DNA of 64,000 nucleotides from a virus. The notes under the pieces were generated by a model, which saw nothing but the letters and a program-made list of their open reading frames with translations, did no database searches and was not told the DNA's origin. Both the position numbers and the translations under genes were made by a program. The DNA lies in the IMG/VR virus record IMGVR_UViG_3300010352_001575, positions 94,206 to 158,205 of that record; one strand, written 5' to 3'. Shown one piece after another: positions 6,200 to 25,510 of this stretch (position 1 is the first letter of the stretch; each line of letters begins with the position of its first letter).

Positions 6200-6455
6200 G
6201 AAAATTTTGCTAAAGCTAGCCATAAACCCAGGCGGGTTTAACTCTACTGATACAGACGGAGAGGTAAGAAGCACCGACCTACCCGTAGCAACCATAGTCC
6301 CGCCCACGGTAAAAAAAGAAAAGGACCAGCTAGACCTATACCCTCGGCCCCCGGCCGTAGTTGCTATGGACGAAGCTAAAGTAATAGACCAGGCCATAGA
6401 CTCTGGTAGCGTTGGTATGCCTGCGGCAGGATCTGACCCGTGCCATCAGCCTTAA
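6186..6455 (+). CDS. Hypothetical protein
   Basis: 89-aa ORF whose ends overlap both neighbours. Confidence 0.5.
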   Translation: MPVNKKILLKLAINPGGFNSTDTDGEVRSTDLPVATIVPPTVKKEKDQLDLYPRPPAVVAMDEAKVIDQAIDSGSVGMPAAGSDPCHQP

Positions 6456-9418
6456 AGCTGCTAAGACCAAGAAGAGAAATGGTGGGCACTACATATCGTA
6501 GAGCCTTCTACGACCAGTGCGTTAAATACATAGATAGCAAGTCCGGAGACAGCCTTCAAGAAATCTTGTGGGTAGAGGAACCGGTAGGCTGGAAAGAGTT
6601 TATAGAATCCCCGCAGCACCTCAATTTATTCTCGTTAACACCTAGACAAGAACTGTTGTTTGACTTCCTAGTCGGCGACGATCCTAAGCAGATGTTTTTC
6701 AACGGAAATAACGAGGCCATTTTGGCCTGGGCGAAGGGGTCGTTACTGGGTGGTACTGAGTTTATTACAGCAGATGGTATACGAGACACACTAGAGAACC
6801 TAGCCAATCGTCCTGGTAATTTGTCTGTATATACTAAGGATGACAATGGGCGCGTGGCTATTGCTCAAGCATCTCAAGTATTTAAGAAGCCTAATAAAGA
6901 AAACTGTTTTAGAGTGACTACTTCCTTTGGACACATTTCTGAATGTTCTGAGGACCATCAGTTTTTCACCACGAACGGATGGAAAAAGCTTAAAGAGTTA
7001 TGCGTAGGAGATTGGGTTTGCTCCGCGCAGCAAATACCTTTAAAGGCCCAGTATTCAGAATCTCCAGAACTGTGTAGGTGGATAGGATACATACTTGGAG
7101 ACGGGTGTATATCAGAAGGTCACCGAGCTCAGTTTTTTGTTTCTATACCGGAAATAGAGAAGGATTATTGCAATATAGTTAAGAGTTTTGGTGGGCATAC
7201 TAGGGTGCGACAGCACAACACCCCTAAGTCTAAAGTTGTAGATATCAAGTTCACCGGAAAGAGAAACGGTAATATTCTGGTTCAGCACGCCAAGAGATTG
7301 GGAGTTTACGGGCATACTGCGGAGAGCAAAAGAATACCTATAGAAATAATGTATTCCAGCGCTAAGTCCAGAATAGCCTTGATTGAGGCGTTGTACGCTA
7401 CGGACGGATCTATTTGCAGGCATAACGCGAAAGATCGTGCGTCTTGGGAAATTACTTATTTAGCCAAAAACAGAAAATTTATAGAAGATTTAGATTTTAT
7501 GTTGCGGTGTTTTGGTATTGTCGGTAAAATCAGAAGAGTACATACAGCATACAATGGAGAAAAGCGGTGGTACTGGAAGCACATCATAACTGACATTTCC
7601 GCAAATAAAAAATTTGCAGAAACATTCATCATTACAGGAAAACAGCATAAAGTTGAGGAAATGATTGAAGACACTCGGTTAGCTCGTGTGCAAGGGAGGA
7701 CGTGCCCTGAGACTCTAACAGAATTAGCAAAAAAAGAAATATACGCATTAGTTGGACGGCGCGGGTCGCAATTACGCGGAAGGCTTAGCAGCGGTCAGAT
7801 GCTCAACTACACCACAGCATGCACGCTTAAAAGCGTAGACAAGCTAGCCAATGAAGATTTGTTGTGGGAGCAAATAAAAAGCATAGATGCGTTAGGCATG
7901 CATCCAGTATATACACTGACTGTACCTGGGACGGCCAATTACTTATGCTCTGGCCTATTTCATCACAATTCAGGCAAAGACACACTAGCGTCAATTTTCT
8001 TGCTGTACTGTGTATACGTGCTTCTATGTGTGGAGTGCCCTCAGAGGATGTTTGGCGTGATGGAAGGCTCTAACATCGACTGCATTAACGTGGCTCCTTC
8101 AGGAGAAAACGCTCACAAAGTTTTCTTCGAATCGCTCAAGCAGCGGGCGCTGAGGTGGCGTTGGCTTAAGGATAAGTTTCGGGTGGAGTTGTCTGGAGAA
8201 TACTTAAACAAGGTTGCCGGAGAAAAGAAAAGCTCTAAAGATACTGTCACGATTACACAAGATGGTATTCTGTTTCCTAAGCAGATTCGATTGTTATCCA
8301 GAAACTCCAACCACGAGAGTGCAGAAGGATACAACACTCTAGTCGGTATCTTGGACGAATCAGACGCGTTTTCAAATAAGAAGGGCGTATGCAACGCCGA
8401 GACGGTGTATGACACGTTGAAGAGCTCTAAGAAATCCCGATTTGGCAGCATTGGCAAAATGCTATCGCTGAGCTTCCCTAGGGCAGAAGACGGGTTCATC
8501 ATCAAGCAGCTTAACGAGAACCTTAAGAATCTTCACGTGTTTACAGACACCGCCGCTACCTGGGAAATACGCCCAAGAAGTTCGTACTCCGCCAAGACTT
8601 TTGTTTTTGAGGGTAGAGAAATACCAGTAGACTTCCAAGACGAATTTGAAAAGAACCCCACCAAAGCAAAGATGTACTACCTAGCCATTCCGCCTAAGGT
8701 ACAGCAGGGCTTCTTTGAGTATCCTGACAAGCTTCGCCTGTGTGCGGATCCCGGGCGTAGTTCGTTAATAACCTGGAGTGAGTACTATGAGGGAGATAAG
8801 GTCTGCGCGCGCATAGACAGCATGCGGTCTGGCAGCTCTTCCTTGTCTTACGTTCTTACTTTGGACTTGGGCCGAAACCGGGACAAGGCAGCTCTCTCGA
8901 TGTCGCACGGGGAGTATCTCAATCCTAAGGCCCCCAATGAGTGCACCGTTGTGCAGGATTTGGTTATGAGCTGGATACCTAACAAGGCTAAAAAACTGAC
9001 AGTATCGTTCATAAACGTAGAGCAAATCATACGAAAGTTATGCGATAGGTACAATATAACCGGGGTGTGGTTTGACGAATGGCAGGCATATCAGATGGAC
9101 GAGCAGCTGAAGAAAGACCAGATATCTTCGCACACTCACGTGTTGCAGGAGCCGGACTACCAGCGGTTCAAGGAAATGTGCTATGTTCAGCGCGTGCAGC
9201 TACTGCCGTACGAGCCTATGCTTAAAGAGATGGAGCGACTGGTGCAGCTAAGAAACCGAGTTGACCACCCTGAAGGCGGAGAAAAGGACTTAGCAGACAC
9301 GATGGTCAGTGCGGTAAAGGTCGTGCTTAACCAAACGCGGTTTACTGGAAACTCTGATTTTCCTGATGTAGAACTCATAACACCCAACCTCCAGACCAAT
9401 ATGGACCCCTGGAGTTAG
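6440..9418 (+). CDS. terL: Terminase large subunit, intein-containing
   Basis: Walker A WAKG|SGKDT after intein removal, Walker B GILDESD, RNase H-like nuclease motifs LTLDLGRNRDKAA, WFDEWQ and DHPEGGEKDLAD. Confidence 0.93.
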   Translation: MPSALKLLRPRREMVGTTYRRAFYDQCVKYIDSKSGDSLQEILWVEEPVGWKEFIESPQHLNLFSLTPRQELLFDFLVGDDPKQMFFNGNNEAILAWAKGSLLGGTEFITADGIRDTLENLANRPGNLSVYTKDDNGRVAIAQASQVFKKPNKENCFRVTTSFGHISECSEDHQFFTTNGWKKLKELCVGDWVCSAQQIPLKAQYSESPELCRWIGYILGDGCISEGHRAQFFVSIPEIEKDYCNIVKSFGGHTRVRQHNTPKSKVVDIKFTGKRNGNILVQHAKRLGVYGHTAESKRIPIEIMYSSAKSRIALIEALYATDGSICRHNAKDRASWEITYLAKNRKFIEDLDFMLRCFGIVGKIRRVHTAYNGEKRWYWKHIITDISANKKFAETFIITGKQHKVEEMIEDTRLARVQGRTCPETLTELAKKEIYALVGRRGSQLRGRLSSGQMLNYTTACTLKSVDKLANEDLLWEQIKSIDALGMHPVYTLTVPGTANYLCSGLFHHNSGKDTLASIFLLYCVYVLLCVECPQRMFGVMEGSNIDCINVAPSGENAHKVFFESLKQRALRWRWLKDKFRVELSGEYLNKVAGEKKSSKDTVTITQDGILFPKQIRLLSRNSNHESAEGYNTLVGILDESDAFSNKKGVCNAETVYDTLKSSKKSRFGSIGKMLSLSFPRAEDGFIIKQLNENLKNLHVFTDTAATWEIRPRSSYSAKTFVFEGREIPVDFQDEFEKNPTKAKMYYLAIPPKVQQGFFEYPDKLRLCADPGRSSLITWSEYYEGDKVCARIDSMRSGSSSLSYVLTLDLGRNRDKAALSMSHGEYLNPKAPNECTVVQDLVMSWIPNKAKKLTVSFINVEQIIRKLCDRYNITGVWFDEWQAYQMDEQLKKDQISSHTHVLQEPDYQRFKEMCYVQRVQLLPYEPMLKEMERLVQLRNRVDHPEGGEKDLADTMVSAVKVVLNQTRFTGNSDFPDVELITPNLQTNMDPWS
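6740..7969 (+). mobile_element. 410-aa intein with double-motif LAGLIDADG endonuclease in the terL Walker A
   Basis: Starts SLLGGTEF (Ser1); block B CSEDHQFFT; LAGLIDADG motifs WIGYILGDG and IEALYATDG; ends LFHHN followed by Ser+1; excision restores AKGSGKD. Confidence 0.93.
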
Positions 9419-14029: not shown

Positions 14030-15859
14030 ATGTCAACTAATAAAGAAGAGCTGTCTGGGTTTGCCAGGAAGGCCAACGCTTCAGCAAGCTTTCCCACAGT
14101 GATATCGGCCGGGGGCGGCACTGCCGCTTCCGAGACGGTCGCTGCTATGAGAAAAACAGCTAGCATTTTCGGGGATACCGGCGATGGCATCACGCGCGCC
14201 CCGCTGCTGTATGTAGACCCGCTGTTCGACCCTGTCCTGTTGATGTTCCCGAAGGAAAACCTTAAGGAGCTGTACCGGCGCCTGCGGCACTACTTTACCT
14301 ACAATCCAATCGTAAAAAACATCATCACACTGCACTCCACATTTCCATTTGGCGATGCGGAAATACGGTGTGAGTCAAAGCGTTTGGAAGATTACTACGC
14401 GGACCTAGGTGAGCGCGCAGAGCTGCTCAAGACCATTACGCAGATGTCCCATGACTACGAGTTGCTGGGAGAGAGCGTGCATTTCGGAGTGTTCGATCCG
14501 ATAGACCTAGAGTGGTCTGAGTTTATACATCTGCCTCCGGAAAATGTTGAAATACACAACGCACAGATGGGCGGTGGCAGCATCTACCAGCTGAAGCCTG
14601 ACGAAGATTTACGCAAGAAGCTAAGTTCTGGCAAGCCAGAAGACCAGGCAGAAATAGAAGGTATGGACTCGGAGTACAAAGAGTCTTTGATGAACAATGT
14701 GCCCTGGAATATGGATGCCAATTGCATCATCTACTATCCGAACAAAACAGAGGGCTATATACTCCGTGGCGACTCGCCGCTGAAAGGCGCCCTTCGCTAT
14801 CTGCTGCTTGAAGACAAGCTGTATATGGCTATGCTGGCTATGGTAGATAGAACTATGTTCCCTATCAAGATATGGAAGATAGGTAGCAAAGAGCAGAACT
14901 GGCTGCCGTCCAAAAAGCATTTCGATGTGCTAAAGCAGAATATCGCAATGCTAAAGAACGACCCGGACGCCGACATACTTTACCATTCCTTCCTGGAGAT
15001 GGAGATAAAGAATTTATCTGCCAACCACGAAGACCTGCTGAAATACTTTGAGTGGACGCAGAAAAGAATACTGATGGGTCTTGGAGCTACTGAGTCGATG
15101 TTTGCAGAAGCTAACGCGTACGCCAAGGACTCTATCAACATAAAGCTAATAATGCATAGGTATATGTTGCAACGCGCCACAGTCAACAAGCTCATACAGC
15201 GCTCAGTATACCTGCCTATCGCTGCGAAGCGTGGCTACATCGCAGAGCGCGCCGTTTCTACGGCCACCAACGCTACCGAAGAGCAGGTGCAGATACCAGA
15301 AATAAAGCGCTATATCGTTCCCCGGCTTCTCTGGCGTCCTAGCAACCTCGTGTCCAACGCCGCCGAGCGTGAATTCCTGTGGAAGATCCGCACAGCCGGC
15401 GAGCTATCCAACAAAGCCATAATGGACAACCTAGGCATAGACCCCGAAACAAACTCACAGCAGCTTAACGACGAGCAAGGCACCCCTGCTGACCCTGTGT
15501 TTAGAGATGCTCGCAAAGGCCTAGTTAACGATATTCGCACCCGCAATCAAATACTGCGCGGGAGCAAAATGGAAGAGCTAGACTTGCCGACTAGCGTGCC
15601 AGAGACCCAGAAGCCCGCTACGGCCAAAAAGCCGTATACTGGCGGAGCGGGTGGCGCTGGTGCTGCTGGTGGTTTAGCTGGCAGCCTGGGAGATCTAGGT
15701 CTTCCATCTGGTGGCGGGGCAGGCCGGCCTCCGCTTCCTGAGGAAGATAAAGCCAAAAAGCCAGCCATAATACCAGAAGAGGTTATGTCTCCGCGCGACA
15801 AGCTAACAGAGTCGGGAGAGCTACCGGCGCCGAAGGGCGAGGGAGCCCCTATCATATAG
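14030..15859 (+). CDS. Portal protein
   Basis: LRHYFTYNPIVKNIITLHSTFPF, HDYELLGESVHF, SPLKGALRYLLLEDKL and FPIKIWKIG fit large-phage portals; Pro/Gly-rich tail; head-module position. Confidence 0.85.
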   Translation: MSTNKEELSGFARKANASASFPTVISAGGGTAASETVAAMRKTASIFGDTGDGITRAPLLYVDPLFDPVLLMFPKENLKELYRRLRHYFTYNPIVKNIITLHSTFPFGDAEIRCESKRLEDYYADLGERAELLKTITQMSHDYELLGESVHFGVFDPIDLEWSEFIHLPPENVEIHNAQMGGGSIYQLKPDEDLRKKLSSGKPEDQAEIEGMDSEYKESLMNNVPWNMDANCIIYYPNKTEGYILRGDSPLKGALRYLLLEDKLYMAMLAMVDRTMFPIKIWKIGSKEQNWLPSKKHFDVLKQNIAMLKNDPDADILYHSFLEMEIKNLSANHEDLLKYFEWTQKRILMGLGATESMFAEANAYAKDSINIKLIMHRYMLQRATVNKLIQRSVYLPIAAKRGYIAERAVSTATNATEEQVQIPEIKRYIVPRLLWRPSNLVSNAAEREFLWKIRTAGELSNKAIMDNLGIDPETNSQQLNDEQGTPADPVFRDARKGLVNDIRTRNQILRGSKMEELDLPTSVPETQKPATAKKPYTGGAGGAGAAGGLAGSLGDLGLPSGGGAGRPPLPEEDKAKKPAIIPEEVMSPRDKLTESGELPAPKGEGAPII

Positions 15860-16162: not shown

Positions 16163-16345
16163 ATGTTTTTTAGAAAAGGCACTCCAACACAAATAACAGT
16201 ACTGACTCGTTGCGCAAAGTGCGGCGGTCCGCTTAGTCCCGAGCAGGCTAAAACAGATGCTAAGACGGGAAAAGCGAAAGTAGCATCGAACAATTTTCTA
16301 TGTGAGGAATGCAAGAAATGTTCTTCAGACAAGGCTCAAAAGTAG
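16163..16345 (+). CDS. Small zinc-ribbon protein
   Basis: 60 aa with CAKC and CEEC pairs; GGTG RBS upstream. Confidence 0.55.
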   Translation: MFFRKGTPTQITVLTRCAKCGGPLSPEQAKTDAKTGKAKVASNNFLCEECKKCSSDKAQK

Positions 16346-17679
16346 CTATTACCAATGTATACGAAAGCCGGGCCAAGCTTAAGAGCTTGAGCCAGGAGTG
16401 GCAGAAATTGGTGAGCGCCGGCGCGAATATGTCGGTCTCTCCTTTTTTAAACCCGGAAGAGTTTGACTACAACACTGAAGATTTCCTGTATTACCGCGCG
16501 CGTGCCCTTACCGCCAATGTGGTTAACATCAACGGCGACTGGTTTGACCACGACGAGCTCAAGAAAGCGTACAATACTTTTGTAGGTAAGGGTGTATACT
16601 TCAACCACGATAGCGAAAATCCCGACAAAGCTTTTGGCATCATATTAGCTGCGTCATACACCCCCGTCTATTTTAACGATGACAATTACACAGACCGTTA
16701 TGTGGAGCTGCTTGGCGCAGTGCACCGCAAGGCGTGCAAAGAGAAGCGCCCCGGCCTGCTAGAGGACATCGAGACTGGCCGGATGGCCAGCACCAGCATG
16801 GGCGTTATAGCTAAGTCCGCTCGCTGTTCCATCTGCAACACGCTCGCCCACAACAAAGACGAGCTGTGTGAGCATACCCACCCTGAGAACATAAAGTACG
16901 CCAAGGGGCGTCTGGTGGACGGCCAACCCTGCTTTGAATACAACTACGGGCTTACCTTTATCGAGGACTCGTTTGTTTATGTTCCTGCAGACCCCACCGC
17001 TAAAGTTTTGGAAATTTATGCATCAGTAGACGCTGGCCTGGATCCTACGCTGACTGAGCACCTTACCCGGTACTCGTCCGCATTATCGGAGCGTCAGAGT
17101 GCAAAATCCGGAGGACATACCAGAATGGCAGATACAAAACCAGCACCCAAAGCTGAAGATCTTGTCAGCGAAATGGCTAGCGCAGTCGCAGAGCCAGCCG
17201 CACAGAAGGTAGCTGATGTTGCTGCAGCTGCGGCACCGGCTCAGGCAGCTGCTCCCAAGGCGGAAGAGAAGCCCAAGAAAGGTGGAAAGACCGTTCAGGA
17301 TTACCAGGACTTTCTGTCAAACATGCCTAACCTTGTTAAGGAGCTAGGCGCTAAGTATATGAAGGATAGCCTGCAGCGTATGATGACGGAAGAGACGCGC
17401 AAGCACCTATCCGAGATGTCCCAGGCCCTTACTAAAGGTCTCAGGGAGTCGATGCAGCCCTATCTGGCTGAGGAAGTGGACAGAGCCAGGGAAGAGATAA
17501 AGCAAGTTCTCCCCGGAGTTTCTCTGGATCTAGCCCCTGCTACAGCATCAGTAAAGGAAAATCCTGTTGTTATTTTGACCGAGGATTTTTCTAAGTGGCC
17601 GGCAGAAGACCGGTTAGCGTTGTCCAGCAGAATAATGAATGGTGAGACTTGGAGCTTTTACGGAGAGGTGGAAAAATAA
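16309..17679 (+). CDS. Prohead (head maturation) protease with C-terminal scaffold-like tail
   Basis: NINGDWF..DEL...Y.TFVGKGVYFNHD, STSMG and IEDSFVYVPADPTAKV fit HK97/herpes-fold prohead proteases; internal Cys/His cluster CSIC...CEH. Confidence 0.75.
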   Translation: MQEMFFRQGSKVAITNVYESRAKLKSLSQEWQKLVSAGANMSVSPFLNPEEFDYNTEDFLYYRARALTANVVNINGDWFDHDELKKAYNTFVGKGVYFNHDSENPDKAFGIILAASYTPVYFNDDNYTDRYVELLGAVHRKACKEKRPGLLEDIETGRMASTSMGVIAKSARCSICNTLAHNKDELCEHTHPENIKYAKGRLVDGQPCFEYNYGLTFIEDSFVYVPADPTAKVLEIYASVDAGLDPTLTEHLTRYSSALSERQSAKSGGHTRMADTKPAPKAEDLVSEMASAVAEPAAQKVADVAAAAAPAQAAAPKAEEKPKKGGKTVQDYQDFLSNMPNLVKELGAKYMKDSLQRMMTEETRKHLSEMSQALTKGLRESMQPYLAEEVDRAREEIKQVLPGVSLDLAPATASVKENPVVILTEDFSKWPAEDRLALSSRIMNGETWSFYGEVEK

Positions 17680-19737: not shown

Positions 19738-19749
19738 GATTGTTCTAAC

Positions 19750-19776
19750 CCTGGGGCGGGTCTAACCCGCCCCAGG
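19750..19776 (+). terminator. GC-rich hairpin (terminator or mRNA-stabilising stem)
   Basis: CCTGGGGCGGG-TCTAA-CCCGCCCCAGG, a perfect 11-bp stem; weak U tract. Confidence 0.6.
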
Positions 19777-19915
19777 ATATTTAAGATTTTTGCTGTAAGC
19801 CGGAATAAATAGTTGTACCGGCATTGATATTTGACAATTTCGGTCCAAGCCGAAACGAAAGCAAGCGAACCAACTGACCTACTATAGGTATAGTAGGGTT
19901 GTATAGGAACATAGT

Positions 19916-22900
19916 ATGATGTTAGGTAATGCGAAGTCTTTCGCGGAAGCGTGGGCCCCTCAATACGAGGAAACCACAAACAGAAGGGGAGATGTGTGCG
20001 AGCGCGGTGCTCGTGCTCTTCTCAAGAAGGAAGCAAAAAAGGCAGAAATGCTGAAACGCATAGCCAGCGGCGAGGAAGCTCCTCTCCGTGGTGAGATGCA
20101 GGAGCTTCGTTTCCAGAACATTCTGAAAACGCCAGGCGCCGGTTTCTCCAGGCTGTCGTTCGCGTTACAGGGCCCGTTAAAGGACCGCTGTGACTACGTC
20201 TCCATCGGCCGCAAGCTGCTGCTGACTGACGTACTGCCGCAGGGCGAGATTTATACGAGTCTCGTAACTCACTCAAATGCTGGAAAATCCTTAGAGCCAC
20301 AGGTACCGGAAACGGTGACAATCTTGTGGATTGGACAATCAGCAGGGCGATATCGCCCTCAGAGACTAAATTTTGCATAGGTAACTATGCAAATACGGTG
20401 AGCTCTTCAAAAGAAGAGAAGGTATAGTCCGACCTGCATAGAAATATGCAGACTTTGGAAGAAACTCCAAAGCGCCTAGAGAAGTAGACTAGGTAGTAAC
20501 ACAGTGTCCGGCGTATGACCTTGATAAATGGCTTGTCACTTCACAGAGCAATCTGTGTTGAAAACCGTGGCTGCTGCTGGAAACTCCTTAGAGCTCTAAC
20601 TGCCAAAGGAGGCGAAAATGTTAGAGATTGGACAATCAGCACGGAAGTACCGTTGGAAGTTTAGATGGGAGTATACTACAATGACTCCTGAGCTGGCCTA
20701 CCTAATTGGTGTTTATTTAGGAGACGGCTCCATAGTTGCAAACAAACAATCGTTATGGTTTGTTTTGCAGGCTATAGACCAAGAGTTTGTAGAATATACT
20801 CGGTCGCTATGCCAAAAGCTAGTAAACGAAACCGTCCCAGAAGTACACAGGTATGTATACTCTAGTAAGAATTCTAGCCCTGTATACAAATTTGTATTTT
20901 CTAGTGGAGATTTCGCGAGCTGGATGATGAACATAACGGCGTGTAAAACAAGAATACCGCGAGAGATTGACAGAACGCCAGGTAATCCAATTCTAAAAGA
21001 ATTCTTATCTGGATTTCTAGATAGTGATGGATTCATCTGTAACAATAGACGCAAATCCGGAAGGGATAATTGGAATGTAGGATTTGGCGGAATATATGCG
21101 TGGATCCACGAAGTGGCGGATATTCTAAGAAATGAAAAATGTGTAGTAAATGGACCGTGGTTAATTAAGCGAAAGAAGTACTACTATGATTATAGGATAA
21201 CACCTAAAAGTTACGCCCAGCACGGCGTAGACTTTAAAATACATAGAAAACAAGAAAAGCTTAAACAACTACGAGAAACGAAGCTCAACGGAAATCCCCC
21301 AGAGACTGTATGCCACGCCCCCACGAAGGGTGAAGAGACAGTCCAACAGTTAGAGAAATCTAATTGAGATAATTGATGCCAGAATTCCCTGAACACTACG
21401 GACGGGGCCAGTTGCAATAAACTGGAAAATTTCGCTATATGCTGGAACATCTTCAAAAGATCTAAGTACTGGAAACAGTGAAAATCTTAGATACACGGAG
21501 ACAATCAGCAGGCAACCCGCAAGGGGCGCCTCAACGACTACACGCGAAACACTGCAAAGTGATGATATAGTCTGATCTGCATAGACATATGCAGTTAACA
21601 ATAATGGCCGTAGCAATCGGTGCCCGGGGTACTCCCCCGATGATGGAAGGAAACTTCCGTCGTATCCTCATCAATACATACTCGATCACAGTTAAATCGA
21701 GCCTGCATTATGAAGAGCTGCCGATCAGGCGCTTCCCAGTATTCGATCGTATGAAAGAACGCGTGGCTATTTCCATGGCGATCAAAGAAGACGATCAGAT
21801 ACTGACCCTGCTGGAAGATGGTCTAACGCAGTCTATTGCCGCGGGTTATGACCAGACCGTGACCAATAGCACAGCCGAGCTCTCGAAAGCCAACATCCTG
21901 TCTATCTATGGAATGCTGCTCTCGAACGGCCTGACTCCGGGCGCTTTTGTAACGCACCCGATGCGCTATGCCAGTGGTATCCTCAGCTTCGGACAAGCAG
22001 ACATTGACCAGGCTTCTCTAAACGTAATTATAGAAACTGGCCAGTTCGGCGTGCTATGAAAATGGCTCAGATACGCGTAAGCGTACTAGATACTTCACTA
22101 TATGCTGGAAACTCCTTAGAGCTCTAACTACCTAGAACGGTAAAAATGTTAGAGATTGGACAATCAGCAGGCAACCCGCAAGGGGCGCCTCAACGACTAC
22201 ACGTGAAGCTCCTAGGTAACTAGGATGAAGATATAGTCTGACCTCGATAGAGATATCGAGAGATAGGCAGAAATGACCTATCCCCGCGATAGCGGTGTAA
22301 CAAAGTGATTTGGTGTTCGCCAGATGCTGTCCACGAGGGTAAACCCCCGCAGGTTCTACCACACGACCACGCCTGAACATATCGGGCCCGGACGGAGCGA
22401 TTCGTCCGTTAACATTCAGTAAATTGCAAGGACACCCTATACTTATATAGAAAAATTTTGTATAATAAATATAGGACAATTTGCAGCCAAGCCTTGAAAG
22501 AGGAAGGTTCAGAGACTATAGACTGAATATCTCAACTGAGATAATGACATAGTCCGAACTATACGGTAACGTATAGAGATTAGCAGAAATGCCTAATCCT
22601 CGAGCAATCGAGTAACAAATTGGATAAGCTGGGTCGTATCCCTGAGTAAGCGTTCGGGGCCTGTGATAGAAATATTGCAGTGAATAACTTGACTGATGCG
22701 GAAAAATCCGAGTATCTTATGCTCCCAGAGTGGAATAACGCATAAGTGCGGAAAATTCGCAGGAGATTAAATCATGGAAAAAAGAGTATTTCGTTTCGGA
22801 AAAATTACACCAAGGCTGGCCTATGTACTAGGCGTATATTTGGGAGACGGATGGGCGTCCAAGCGAGGTGGGTTTGGCTTGTTCAGCATAGACAAAGAGC

Positions 22901-23754
22901 TGACAGACTGCATAAAATGCTACTGTGAAAGCTTTGTCGGTCCTACCCCTGAAGTTAAGCCCAGGCAATACAACAAAGGGTTTAACGGCAAAGGCGCTAA
23001 TGGTTGGGTTTACGAGTTTCACTGTCCGGAGTTTTGTTCCTGGTTGAAGGATATAACCAAGAATAAGGCGATAGTCCCAGACGTGATTCCAGTTACCAAC
23101 TCAGAAATAACCAAGAACCTATGCGAGGGTTTTATAGACGCAGAGGGCTGGGTTAAAAAGTCTACCAAAAAAACTTGTGCATACGGGCATACATACGGGA
23201 TGGGAGTTTGTAATACTAATCTAGATCTGTTAAACGGGGTTGTCTCCCGGCTAGAGCAAGTAGGAGTAAGGCACGGAAAGCTACATACAATAGTTAGAGC
23301 AGACCGGGTTAAGCCAGAATACTTCTACAACTTAGTATTACAGGACGCTGTGAAATCTCGGTTAAACTTGAGAACTCGAAGAAAAGCAGAGCGGCTTAAA
23401 GAGTACGCAAGTTTGAACTTTAAGAAACCTTGGAATAAGGGCATGACCAAAGAAGAAATAGTAGCTAAGATTGGCCATGATTATATGAAAAGAAATGATT
23501 TGATCTCTACAACGACTGAACGTCAAGCACCCTAACGGGTGGTGTTACAGTCTGACCTGCATGGCGATATGCAGTTAACATAAGTAGAACGCAAGAGCGT
23601 TGAGGTAAAAGTGATTGACTGGCCAGTTGACAATCGTTACATCATCTCCGGATGGGAAATGGTTGGCTTCGGTCTGCACAACACTGGTGGTATTTCCGCC
23701 GCGAAGCTGACATGGGGAAGCCTGCAGATGCCTGCTCGCTATCCACTGTCCTAA
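19916..23754 (+). CDS. Major capsid protein in 7 exons: join(19916..20250,20507..20525,21376..21390,21607..22055,22308..22374,22623..22643,23587..23754), 357 aa
   Basis: Exons sum to 1074 nt and read in frame: ...DYVSIGRKLLLTDVLPQGEI-PAYDLD-MPEFP-AVAIGARG...KEDDQILTLL...ETGQFGVL-FGVRQMLSTRV...TTP-DKLGRIP-ERKSVEV...GFGLHNTGGIS..., the motif order of HK97-fold MCPs of large myoviruses. Confidence 0.88.
20251..20506 (+). ncRNA. Group I intron 1 in MCP (256 nt, no ORF)
   Basis: P AATGCTGGAAA, Q CAATCAGCAGG, R TCAGAGACTA, S AAGGTATAGTCC; P1 GAGAT pairs with GTCTC with the terminal U-G; ends in G. Confidence 0.88.
20526..21375 (+). mobile_element. Group I intron 2 in MCP (850 nt) encoding a LAGLIDADG endonuclease
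   Basis: P TGCTGGAAAC, Q CAATCAGCA, R CCAGAGACTG, S AAGAGACAGTCC; the 3' end could be 21375 or 21378 (both in frame), P10 pairing favours 21375. Confidence 0.82.
20618..21367 (+). CDS. Intron-encoded double-motif LAGLIDADG homing endonuclease
   Basis: LAYLIGVYLGDGSI and FLSGFLDSDGFI; the true start may be ATG 20681 (MTPELAY). Confidence 0.9.
   Translation: MLEIGQSARKYRWKFRWEYTTMTPELAYLIGVYLGDGSIVANKQSLWFVLQAIDQEFVEYTRSLCQKLVNETVPEVHRYVYSSKNSSPVYKFVFSSGDFASWMMNITACKTRIPREIDRTPGNPILKEFLSGFLDSDGFICNNRRKSGRDNWNVGFGGIYAWIHEVADILRNEKCVVNGPWLIKRKKYYYDYRITPKSYAQHGVDFKIHRKQEKLKQLRETKLNGNPPETVCHAPTKGEETVQQLEKSN
21391..21606 (+). ncRNA. Group I intron 3 in MCP (216 nt, no ORF)
   Basis: P ATGCTGGAAC, Q CAATCAGCAGG, R TCAACGACTA, S ATGATATAGTCT; P1 CCCT/GGGG; P10 CTACGG pairs with 3' exon CCGTAG; ends in G. 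Confidence 0.9.
22056..22307 (+). ncRNA. Group I intron 4 in MCP (252 nt, no ORF)
   Basis: P ATGCTGGAAA, Q CAATCAGCAGG, R TCAACGACTA, S AAGATATAGTCT; IGS AAAT-GGC pairs with 3' exon ATTT and 5' exon GCT; ends in G. Confidence 0.9.
22375..22622 (+). ncRNA. Group I intron 5 in MCP (248 nt, no ORF)
   Basis: P AAATTGCAAGG, Q CAATTTGCAGCC, R TTCAGAGACTA, S ATGACATAGTCC; IGS TATC-GGGC pairs with 3' exon GATA and 5' exon GCCT; ends in G. Confidence 0.88.
22644..23586 (+). mobile_element. Group I intron 6 in MCP (943 nt) encoding a LAGLIDADG endonuclease; predicted terminal A
   Basis: R TACAACGACTG, S GTTACAGTCTG, P8 CACCC-TAAC-GGGTG; IGS GCGTTC-GGGG pairs 6 bp with 3' exon GAACGC and 4 bp with 5' exon CCCT. 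Confidence 0.82.
22774..23535 (+). CDS. Intron-encoded double-motif LAGLIDADG endonuclease with a C-terminal NUMOD3-like motif
   Basis: LAYVLGVYLGDGWA and LCEGFIDAEGWV; KKPWNKGMTKE near the C terminus; AGGAG RBS. Confidence 0.9.
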   Translation: MEKRVFRFGKITPRLAYVLGVYLGDGWASKRGGFGLFSIDKELTDCIKCYCESFVGPTPEVKPRQYNKGFNGKGANGWVYEFHCPEFCSWLKDITKNKAIVPDVIPVTNSEITKNLCEGFIDAEGWVKKSTKKTCAYGHTYGMGVCNTNLDLLNGVVSRLEQVGVRHGKLHTIVRADRVKPEYFYNLVLQDAVKSRLNLRTRRKAERLKEYASLNFKKPWNKGMTKEEIVAKIGHDYMKRNDLISTTTERQAP

Positions 23755-23769
23755 GCGATAGGGAATCAA

Positions 23770-23813
23770 TTGTAAAACCTGTGCCGGGTTGTACACCCGG
23801 CGCAGGTTTACAA
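23770..23813 (+). terminator. Long hairpin after the MCP stop
   Basis: TTGTAAAACCTGTGCCGGGT-TGTAC-ACCCGGCGCAGGTTTACAA, a ~19-bp stem without a downstream U tract. Confidence 0.6.
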
Positions 23814-23832
23814 CAACAACAAGGATAAAACA

Positions 23833-24300: not shown

Positions 24301-24521
24301 TGAGGCTATCACTAGAAACAGTAGCAGACAAAGTAAAAGCCATCGGCGTTATCTTGGCTTTTATTGTTGGTACCTCCGCGGTCATAGTTAGGTATTACAA
24401 TCTTCCAAAAGACGTAGCTACGCTTACCGCAGAGCAAAAAGTACTGAGGGCCGAAATTGACAAGCTAACTGACCGGTTGGAAACGGTTGAGAGACGCATA
24501 TCTCGCAGGAGAACGCAATGA
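24300..24521 (+). CDS. Small single-pass membrane protein with coiled coil
   Basis: Hydrophobic AIGVILAFIVGTSAVIV followed by a heptad coiled coil. Confidence 0.6.
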   Translation: MRLSLETVADKVKAIGVILAFIVGTSAVIVRYYNLPKDVATLTAEQKVLRAEIDKLTDRLETVERRISRRRTQ

Positions 24522-25510
24522 AGCTACCCATCACCATAGCACTGATGTTCTTGTTTTCAGGACCGGCGTTTAGTAAGGACCTGAGCCAGCAGACCGTAAA
24601 TAGCCAGATCGCAGCAGTACAGAAAGCAATTAAGGAAAAGGGCGCAAAGTGGGTGGCCGGCGAGACCTCGCTGTCTAAGCTGCCCATCGACCAGAAGCGC
24701 CGCCGCGTCGGTATTGGCTTCCAGATGCTGAACGTGCCGCCCCTGAAGCTCTCAAAGACGCGCGTTAGCGTACCGGCCAGCATTGACTGGCGCGCCAAAG
24801 GCGCTGTGTCTAACGTAGCTGACCAGGGCCAGTGCGGCTCCTGCTGGGCTTTTGCTTTAACGGCCGCGCTAGAGTCTTATGTGATGCGCGCGCCGGGCGT
24901 TACCAAGAACGTGGACCTATCTGAGCAGGTGATGGTCTCCTGCAGCGGCATAGGTTCTTGTGACGGCGGAACGCTAGACGGTGACTTCATCCGTAATGTT
25001 GGTATCCCGCCAGAAAAGTTTTACCCATACTCTGCGCAGAACGGTGCTTGTGAAGATGTTAAGGAAGGCTGGCAAACGGCTTCTTTCAAGATCAACACCT
25101 GGGGTTCAGTGCCTAAGTCCCTGAACGCCATAAAAGAAGCCCTGGTACAATATGGACCTCTTCCCACGGCTCTGTGGGTTTACGAAGATCTCATGCACTA
25201 CAAATCAGGTGTGTACTCATACACCACTGGCAAGAAGCTAGGCGGGCACGCCATACTGCTAGTTGGATATGACGACGCAGAGAAATGCTTTATATTAAAG
25301 AACAGCTGGGGCGAGGACTGGGGAGAGAAGGGTTTCTTCAAGGTAGCCTACTCTGAGCTGAACACGGTGGTTACGATGGGTCTTATGACCATTGCGTACA
25401 CGTCTGACCCGAGCCAGAACACTTTCCCGTCAGGACAATTGAAGCTGCCTGAGGTGGACACTTACGGGATTGCAGAGCAATCGCCGATACTTACCGGAAT
25501 GAGGCTATAG
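24518..25510 (+). CDS. Papain-like C1A cysteine peptidase with N-terminal signal peptide
   Basis: QGQCGSCWAF (catalytic Cys), GGHAILLVGY (His), KNSWG (Asn); signal-like MKLPITIALMFLFSGPAFS. Confidence 0.95.
   Translation: MKLPITIALMFLFSGPAFSKDLSQQTVNSQIAAVQKAIKEKGAKWVAGETSLSKLPIDQKRRRVGIGFQMLNVPPLKLSKTRVSVPASIDWRAKGAVSNVADQGQCGSCWAFALTAALESYVMRAPGVTKNVDLSEQVMVSCSGIGSCDGGTLDGDFIRNVGIPPEKFYPYSAQNGACEDVKEGWQTASFKINTWGSVPKSLNAIKEALVQYGPLPTALWVYEDLMHYKSGVYSYTTGKKLGGHAILLVGYDDAEKCFILKNSWGEDWGEKGFFKVAYSELNTVVTMGLMTIAYTSDPSQNTFPSGQLKLPEVDTYGIAEQSPILTGMRL

Follow-up and report, generated by a model that had tools for sequence, protein, structure and literature searches.

In a ~178-kb tailed phage from activated sludge, the single major capsid protein (MCP) gene is very likely a real seven-exon gene that is interrupted by six group I introns. 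The gene occupies positions 19916-23754 of a 64,000-nt stretch (hereafter, the window), which corresponds to bases 94206-158205 of the 177,741-bp IMG/VR record IMGVR_UViG_3300010352_001575, a genome estimated to be 90% complete. Introns of 256, 850, 216, 252, 248 and 943 nt add up to 2765 nt, or 72% of the 3839-nt locus; two of them carry open reading frames (ORFs) for predicted homing endonucleases. This reading is carried by the exon-intron structure, the ribozyme cores, the colinearity of the exons with intact homologs, the HK97 fold of the protein family, the lack of a second capsid gene in the record, and the polymorphic presence and absence of introns among relatives. All detectable introns of the 178-kb genome appear to be concentrated in this one gene.

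Seven exons and one capsid protein

The ORF list for 19916-23754 holds only protein fragments, plus two ORFs of ~250 aa. Excision of the six introns leaves a single stop-free ORF of 1074 nt, which encodes 357 aa; intron lengths and ORF reproduce exactly those proposed in an earlier analysis of the window made from its letters and ORFs (hereafter, the sequence-only reading). How can one tell that the seven exons belong together? A phmmer search with the largest fragment returns 40 relatives, of which the intact ones are 327-341 aa long. The closest intact relative, P0003, matches the window in seven pieces that follow one another in order (tblastn), and its uninterrupted sequence continues through all junctions (...GEI|PAYDLD|IPEFG|AVVVGAR ... 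GQFGVL|HGVR...TTP|DKLGRIPE|RKSIEVKV...); DKLGRIPE of the exon 6 region is matched at 100% in P0003, P0004 and P0007. When the spliced product is aligned with 11 intact relatives, none of the junctions has an alignment gap, so the joined protein lines up continuously with its MCP homologs, as the sequence-only reading had supposed. The alignment leaves no insert unaccounted for within the exons, and core-less “mini-introns” are accordingly absent. Against a hidden Markov model (HMM) of the intact relatives, the spliced product forms one domain (HMM positions 14-313, 331.6 bits, E 2e-103), vs. 226 bits for the three raw ORF fragments summed. The junction-spanning peptides of the product include GEIPAYDLDMPEFPAVAIGAR; residues 291-307 cover junctions 5 and 6. 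An intein, a frameshifted pseudogene and an alternative genetic code were considered and ruled out: the gaps have stops in all frames, they score as RNA structure, and their exact removal restores colinearity.

The exons differ in what their loss would cost: skipping of exon 2 or exon 6 would cause a frameshift, and skipping of exon 3 would remove five residues. Five of the six intron sites fall in 9-residue windows of above-average conservation (68th-87th percentile), with the intron 4 site at the 35th; this placement fits endonuclease targets in conserved sequence.

Single exons have no match in Pfam or PHROGs, and the MCP identity is therefore taken from the intact relatives. These match phrog_2522, “major head protein”, over their full length (E 1e-25 to 1e-38); P0008 and P0014 also pass PF25209 and PF05065, just above the cutoffs, and the exon 1 region of the window reaches phrog_2522 with E 2.4e-5. 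The nearest cultured match is the major head protein of Bacillus phage G (~30% identity). An AlphaFold model of P0003, made with 18 aligned relatives, has a pLDDT of 74.9 and a core above 85. Its top Foldseek matches in the PDB are HK97 gp5 structures (8cfa, 2fs3, 1ohg; E about 1e-10, probability 1.0), and the best 50 of 368 matches at E<=0.001 are all capsid or encapsulin shell proteins. The HK97 fold anticipated by the sequence-only reading thus finds confirmation in P0003, the intact relative closest to the window (48% identity in exon 4), which was modelled in place of the spliced window protein. The product can be described as a phage G-like MCP of phrog_2522, with an HK97 fold predicted through P0003.

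The gene appears to be the only one of its kind. Exon 4, phrog_2522 and the family alignment, each searched against the whole 177.7-kb record, recover pieces of this locus only and no second MCP, and the claim that no intact MCP exists elsewhere holds for the genome at its 90% completeness. The remaining 114 kb (120,741 bases of overlapping pieces) contain no other intron at the Rfam gathering threshold, only tRNAs, a transfer-messenger RNA (tmRNA) and one small RNA motif; nhmmer profiles of the 5′ and 3′ cores of the intron family and tblastn with both endonucleases, applied to the whole record, return the MCP locus alone.

Ribozyme cores, splice sites and predicted intron-borne endonucleases

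The Rfam covariance model of group I introns (RF00028, Intron_gpI; gathering score 50 bits) matches three of the introns at full length: intron 3 (21381-21594, 81.7 bits), intron 4 (22046-22260, 82.8 bits) and intron 5 (22363-22576, 84.0 bits). Sequence blocks for P4, P5′/P4′, J6/7-P7 and J8/7-P7′ are common to all six introns. P3 is a perfect pairing of 5-7 bp that has a different sequence in each intron (Table 1), and the P8 hairpins differ among all six. Four introns have GACUA/UAGUC as P7, and the ORF-bearing introns 2 and 6 have GACUG/CAGUC, a compensatory change. Over 67 nt, the 5′ part of intron 2 shares 88% identity with intron 4 (E 3e-20), and the 3′ part of intron 6 is 83% identical to intron 3. 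From these shared blocks, the covarying P3 and the compensated P7, a conserved catalytic core (P3-P8, with consensus J6/7 and J8/7) is recognised in each of the six introns, in agreement with the core elements assigned to them by the sequence-only reading.

Each intron also has to define its own boundaries. The splice-site table was made with an automatic P1 finder, which returned implausible helices for introns 2 and 4; both were re-derived by hand. Introns 1-5 have a U at -1 paired with a guide G and end in a terminal G. P1 is GCGAGAU/GUCUCGU in intron 1, CCCU/GGGG in intron 3 and GCCU/GGGC in intron 5, each with U.G, and, tentatively, UGAU/GUCA in intron 2; in intron 4, the guide 5′-AAAU|GGC pairs with the 3′ exon AUUU (P10) and with the 5′ exon GCU. 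P10 is clear in four introns: 3 (7 bp with one bulge), 4, 5 (GAUA/UAUC) and 6 (5-6 bp). P9.0 pairs as GU/AC in introns 1 and 4, as AU/AU in intron 3, and as UU/AA in introns 2 and 5. The P9.0 covariation claimed by the sequence-only reading therefore stands for introns 1, 3, 4 and 5 and extends to intron 2; the “GT-omega” that it assigned to intron 6 forms only if A23586 is the last base. Likewise, the U-G pair in P1 by which that reading chose its sites goes together with a terminal G in introns 1-5; intron 6 cannot have both.

Introns 2 and 6 carry the two long ORFs. Both translations match PF14528 (cutoff 22.5 bits), that of intron 2 with 23.5 bits (E 6.7e-5) and that of intron 6 with 28.7 bits (E 1.6e-6); the intron 2 protein also matches the phrog_4645 endonuclease (E 2.4e-12). 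The two proteins are 27% identical to each other, and two LAGLIDADG-like motifs are visible in each translation. Each ORF is placed between P6 and J6/7, has a Shine-Dalgarno sequence and extends into the 3′ core (P7-P9). The intron 2 ORF starts in P5 after an AAGGAGG Shine-Dalgarno and stops 8 nt short of the 3′ splice site, so that it overlaps P7-P9; the intron 6 ORF has an AGGAG Shine-Dalgarno upstream and its stop codon in the P8 loop. Both are predicted to encode LAGLIDADG homing endonucleases housed in a peripheral loop of a group I intron. In the catalogue protein P0021, a homolog of the intron 6 endonuclease is fused to MCP exon sequence.

Where else does this intron family occur? A blastn search with intron 3 against cultured phages finds no close cultured relative of these introns: matches cover only the ~35-50-nt J8/7-P7′-P9 core, e.g., in DNA polymerase introns of Vi06 and PhAPEC5/7. 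In two wastewater runs (evidence from sequencing runs refers to assembled contigs throughout), the conserved core stretches 21559-21594, 22103-22180 and 22221-22260 are matched by many contigs with unrelated flanks, at a summed depth of up to ~2000 (<=~2000); the same intron family thus appears to be abundant in many other wastewater genomic contexts. In runs X19 and X20, which are labelled RNA and are probably DNA, only the conserved intron cores are matched, at great depth, and these runs carry no information on splicing here. Two short ORFs, 22146-22223 in intron 4 and 21478-21570 in intron 3 (MLEIGQSAGNPQGAPQRL... and MKILDTRRQSAGNPQGAPQRL...), are translated ribozyme core; the peptide of these intron-core ORFs also opens the catalogue protein P0030 and is usable as a signature of the intron family in protein databases.

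Table 1. Parts of the split capsid gene in window coordinates, with the P3 pairings of the introns.
Feature	Position	Strand	Length	Details	P3/P3′
MCP exon 1	19916..20250	+	335 nt	ends ...GEI, phase 2; tblastn P0003 residues 2-101, E 9e-26	
Intron 1	20251..20506	+	256 nt	compact group I; hairpin insertion after P7	CUCAC/GUGAG (read from RF00028 alignment)
MCP micro-exon 2	20507..20525	+	19 nt	PAYDLD, 100% match in P0003 and P0004	
Intron 2	20526..21375	+	850 nt	group I with LAGLIDADG ORF in P6 region	CGUGGC/GCCACG (strands 746 nt apart, across ORF)
Predicted LAGLIDADG ORF of intron 2	20618..21367	+	249 aa		
MCP micro-exon 3	21376..21390	+	15 nt	MPEFP; xPEFx at same place in relatives	
Intron 3	21391..21606	+	216 nt	compact group I	UUUCGC/GCGAAA
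MCP exon 4	21607..22055	+	449 nt	tblastn P0003 residues 113-257, E 6e-40	
Intron 4	22056..22307	+	252 nt	compact group I	CUUCAC/GUGAAG
MCP exon 5	22308..22374	+	67 nt	FGVRQMLSTRVNPRRFYHTTTP; aligned to P0003 residues 258-279	
Intron 5	22375..22622	+	248 nt	compact group I; most divergent of six	AUUCAGU/ACUGAAU
MCP micro-exon 6	22623..22644	+	22 nt (21 nt in alternative register)	DKLGRIP+G	
Intron 6	22645..23587	+	943 nt	group I with LAGLIDADG ORF; 22644-23586 gives same mRNA	CUUGAC/GUCAAG (strands 834 nt apart, across ORF)
Predicted LAGLIDADG ORF of intron 6	22774..23535	+	253 aa		
MCP exon 7	23588..23754	+	167 nt	(E)RKSVEVKV...ARYPLS, stop; tblastn P0003 residues 287-341, 56% identity, E 7e-17	

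Proposed splicing, the intron 6 register and strain variation

The following scenario would account for the locus. The MCP gene would have been colonised by six members of one compact group I intron family, each with its own guide sequence matched to the insertion site. To yield the 1074-nt mRNA, the late transcript would have to lose all six introns by GTP-initiated self-splicing, with two transesterifications for each, and we infer that splicing occurs and is efficient; the three micro-exons (19, 15 and 22 nt) would be retained rather than skipped. Homing driven by the endonucleases may have carried the introns from one co-infecting relative to another, with reverse splicing into sites like ...CCU|G as a possible second route; introns 3, 5 and 6 share this site type and GGGG/GGGC guides.

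Several observations weigh against a gene with six functional introns. First, the Rfam check suggested by the sequence-only reading comes out clearly for introns 3-5 and only in part for the rest: intron 1 (20226-20451) scores 47.8 bits (E 3.4e-10), just below the gathering score, and introns 2 and 6 lack a whole-intron match above the Rfam threshold because Infernal cannot bridge their ~700-nt ORF insertions. The 3′ halves of these two introns give truncated matches of 15.6 and 17.9 bits, respectively, over P7-P3′-P8-P7′-P9, and their 5′ halves give no truncated match at E<=1. Second, intron 6 cannot combine U.G at the 5′ splice site with a terminal G, and the mixed choice of U22643 and G23587 would produce a frameshifted mRNA and a truncated capsid protein. 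Third, the record is only 90% complete, and the link between introns 1-3 and introns 4-6, on either side of the 449-nt exon 4, depends on assemblies. Fourth, a contig from an RNA library that looks like spliced mRNA could come from an intron-less relative or from library DNA.

This contig (library X21 from activated sludge, record 18; 270 nt, depth 2) links exon 4, by way of 10 letters, to exon 5 and then to exon 6. It is missing exactly intron 4, with 3+7 exon letters left, and exactly 22375-22622 (248 nt, ends GA..TG); at the second joint, the short side is only 21 letters long. Over exons 5-6 the contig is identical to the window, but in exon 4 identity falls to 94%, and the 10 letters across site 4 include 5 differences. 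This pattern weakly suggests an organism with the same intron 5. The spliced reads proposed as a check by the sequence-only reading thus have a counterpart in these exact deletions of introns 4 and 5, one that looks the same as an intron-less relative would.

Would the six introns splice without help? It is unlikely, in our view, that the segments are not self-splicing and depend on a protein cofactor of phage or host origin or on a neighbouring ribozyme, or that they impose a regulated delay on capsid synthesis. Such an arrangement would suit the two endonuclease ORFs, which overlap the 3′ core (P7-P9), so that translation and folding compete; moreover, LAGLIDADG proteins can act as maturases. 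It would also suit the micro-exons, which set adjacent ribozymes 15-22 nt apart, given that exon skipping is known for the 23-nt exon of Twort orf142 (PMC10136302) and for SIOphi (PMC11878797). However, every intron has a complete P3-P9 core and its own guide, four score as full-length Intron_gpI, and in vitro self-splicing has been found for the phage introns of this kind studied to date (PMC11878797; Twort as cited there).

Intron 6 poses a different problem. A strict enumeration of sites with T at -1, a terminal G and the intron lengths of the sequence-only reading has no solution, which is what exposed the anomaly. Homology sets the mRNA at junction 6 as ...AUC CCU GAA CGC AAG..., and two registers yield this same mRNA. 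In register a, cleavage after U22643 and a last base A23586 keep U.G, a 6-bp P10 (GAACGC/GCGUUC) and P9.0 GU/AC. In register b, cleavage after G22644 and a last base G23587 give a terminal G and a G-C pair at the cleavage site, with P1 CCCUG/CGGGG and P10 AACGC/GCGUU and without P9.0. Two more distal 3′ sites, G23613 (970 nt) and G23595 (952 nt), combine U at -1 with a terminal G in frame; they are ruled out because they would delete ERKSVEVKV and ERK, respectively, which are kept in every intact relative and encoded in the window.

Homologous introns on two other contigs occupy one register each. The intron of L018 is canonical in the first (U.G, terminal G, ...AAAUG|GAGAG, phase 0), and that of L014 is unambiguously in the second (Watson-Crick G-C at the cleavage site, terminal G, phase 1). 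A tentative possibility is that intron 6 of the window is an intermediate in a natural series from L018 to L014, in which the splice register slipped by one base with the mRNA unchanged. If this were true and the phage viable, an essential and very highly expressed gene would rely on a ribozyme that departs from one of the two best-conserved rules for splice sites.

Alternatively, the gene may be partly dead: with the terminal G of intron 6 lost (G to A at 23586), no in-frame ligation would take place, and the phage would make a truncated capsid protein or require a helper or a co-infecting relative. The register that holds U.G, the 6-bp P10 and P9.0 GU/AC does end at A23586, precisely where the L018 homolog is canonical, and the guanosine-binding G-C pair of P7 is unchanged, so that nothing compensates for the terminal A. 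Yet the L014 homolog uses a G-C cleavage pair and a terminal G one base over, an arrangement that the window's intron 6 fits too; exon 7 is intact and 56% identical to P0003; and intron 6 persists, at depth 21, in a 97%-identical relative from an unrelated sample of 2025, which argues for a replicating lineage. We consider loss of function to be quite improbable and a working gene with six introns to be the better reading.

This relative, which comes from DNA run X3, also reveals how variable the intron content is. Two contigs (depth ~21-23) belong to a phage whose introns 5-6 and exon 7 are ~97% identical to those of the window. It passes from exon 1 to exon 4 via exactly 34 nt (PAYDLD MAEFP), the length of exons 2 and 3 together, and sites 1-3 must therefore be empty. 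Its exon 1 contains an insert of ~220 nt that resembles intron 3 (before IGRKLLL), another insert, of ~865 nt, lies at 21774 (AIS|MAI), and site 4 is filled by a divergent insert; together with introns 5 and 6, this makes about five insertions in total. A second, rarer X3 strain has intron 1 and is devoid of introns 2 and 3. In X3 record 19, from the relative with empty sites 1-3, exon 2 (compared with window 20507-20525) differs at 7 of 19 nt, none of which changes an amino acid, and exon 3 at one position of 15 (Pro to Ala), with ~97% identity elsewhere. This local divergence fits co-conversion tracts or divergence of endonuclease targets at the intron sites.

More distant members of the family vary further. 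The intron 6 site is occupied in L014, L018 and X3; L018 also has a LAGLIDADG_2-bearing intron at AIA|MAI. On contig L015, the MCP gene is split by at least four segments at other sites, with three Rfam matches (65.2, 80.9 and 39.9 bits) and one HNH ORF. Two Rfam intron matches of L015, 4088-4303 and 4321-4972, are only ~17 nt apart, a distance that would make another micro-exon; the second carries HNH, not LAGLIDADG. At least 10 distinct insertion positions are used across this ~340-aa MCP family, and six is the highest intron count among the members examined. With exons 1 and 4 of the window as queries, no close relatives are found in IMG/VR; with P0003 as the query, one intron-free locus is found, L002. 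Many catalogue “proteins” (P0016, P0021, P0030 and others) are in fact MCP exons whose reading frame continues into an intron, as in P0021, where TTPDKVGRMP leads into a LAGLIDADG protein.

Since intron occupancy differs between close strains, as in X3, one could argue that the assembly collapsed strains with different intron sets and that no single genome holds all six, but this is highly improbable: exons 2, 3 and 6 are so short (19, 15 and 22 nt) that single 31-mers or reads tie introns 1-2, 2-3 and 5-6 together, the 67-nt exon 5 ties intron 4 to intron 5 within one read, two activated-sludge runs, the likely source of the phage, contain 99% of the locus 31-mers in an independent assembly, and assembly is needed only to bridge the 449 nt of exon 4.

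Other split phage genes and the neighbourhood of the capsid gene

How unusual is such a gene? The window adds a dense further example of multi-intron phage capsid genes, not a new kind of element. The sequence-only reading had called six introns in an MCP gene exceptional, which is an overstatement: in the crAss-like Zeta-group phage cMAG OLRF01000054, the MCP gene is in five fragments separated by four gaps, three of which have intron-type protein domains (Yutin et al., 2021, PMC7886860), and metagenomic members of the present MCP family have four or five insertions. Both cases concern uncultured phages (145-192 kb in the Zeta group) whose capsid gene is multiply split by group I introns, some with endonuclease domains, and both are known from bioinformatics only. 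They differ in that the window gene has seven exons and six introns, four of these supported by the Rfam RNA model, and encodes a protein of the phage G-like phrog_2522 family (~340 aa); furthermore, while Zeta genomes have up to 14 introns spread over many genes, all introns here are in the MCP gene.

Other precedents are sparser within a gene. In Staphylococcus phage Twort, the tail tube gene orf142 has three group I introns and a 23-nt exon that is sometimes skipped (Landthaler and Shub, 1999, as cited in PMC10136302 and PMC11878797). Like the window gene, orf142 is, as these citing papers describe it, a late structural gene with several related compact group I introns and a very short internal exon between two similar introns; unlike the window gene, whose six introns and three micro-exons are known from sequence alone, it has three introns, and its splicing and exon skipping were demonstrated by experiment. 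The MCP genes of mycobacteriophage LittleE, where efficient splicing was shown (PMC3706429), and of lactococcal phage Tuc2009 (as cited in PMC3706429) each have an endonuclease-carrying group I intron, as here, but one each, compared with six. In the jumbo gut (Jug) phages (PMC12880540) and in Bastillevirinae (PMC11878797), core genes are often split by ~200-nt and endonuclease-bearing group I introns, many confirmed by metatranscriptome or cDNA reads. Jug phages average 18.5 introns per genome, spread genome-wide, with terL in 2-3 fragments (PMC12880540), and Bastillevirinae genes have at most three introns (PMC11878797). Unlike here, there are no more than 2-3 introns per gene in these phages, in terL, nrdD and DNA polymerase genes. 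We found no published phage gene with six introns in the literature.

What sets the window gene apart is the combination of a phage G-like capsid family, introns confined to one gene, three micro-exons, strain-level intron turnover and the intron 6 splice site. Because gene callers see only fragments and single exons are unmatched in Pfam and PHROGs, such phages seem to have no capsid gene. The introns sit in the gene for the most abundant virion protein, mostly in its more conserved peptide motifs, and near-identical strains have different intron sets; capsid production would also depend on keeping three micro-exons of 15-22 nt that lie between adjacent ribozymes. The family could thus serve well as a natural model of intron homing and turnover among co-infecting phages, of micro-exon skipping, and of the tolerance of splice-site deviation in an essential gene.

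The MCP gene belongs to a head-morphogenesis module, in which it is preceded by genes for TerL (6440-9418), portal (14030-15859) and prohead protease (16309-17679), as well as by a scaffold-like ORF with a coiled coil. At 992 aa, the TerL-like ORF is of unusual length: terminase matches are confined to its C-terminal half, and a helicase-like match falls on residues 182-365. A papain-like peptidase C1 gene adjoins the MCP gene in the window (24518-25510, phrog_16701) and on the unrelated contig L015 (1546-2544, PF00112), which suggests a conserved neighbourhood; the window peptidase has a hydrophobic, signal-like N-terminus. Perfect G+C-rich hairpins are present at 19746-19779, after the upstream 197-aa ORF, and at 23768-23815, after the MCP stop; they surfaced as weak chance matches to microRNA models and look like terminator or RNA-stability stem-loops. 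Finally, L003:5209-15916 (C1:5.2-15.9 kb, minus strand) contains a dense array of 27 tRNA matches with a tRNA-Sec-like match and a full-length tmRNA (84.3 bits), which is directly adjoined by a match to the abiF RNA motif (41.5 bits).

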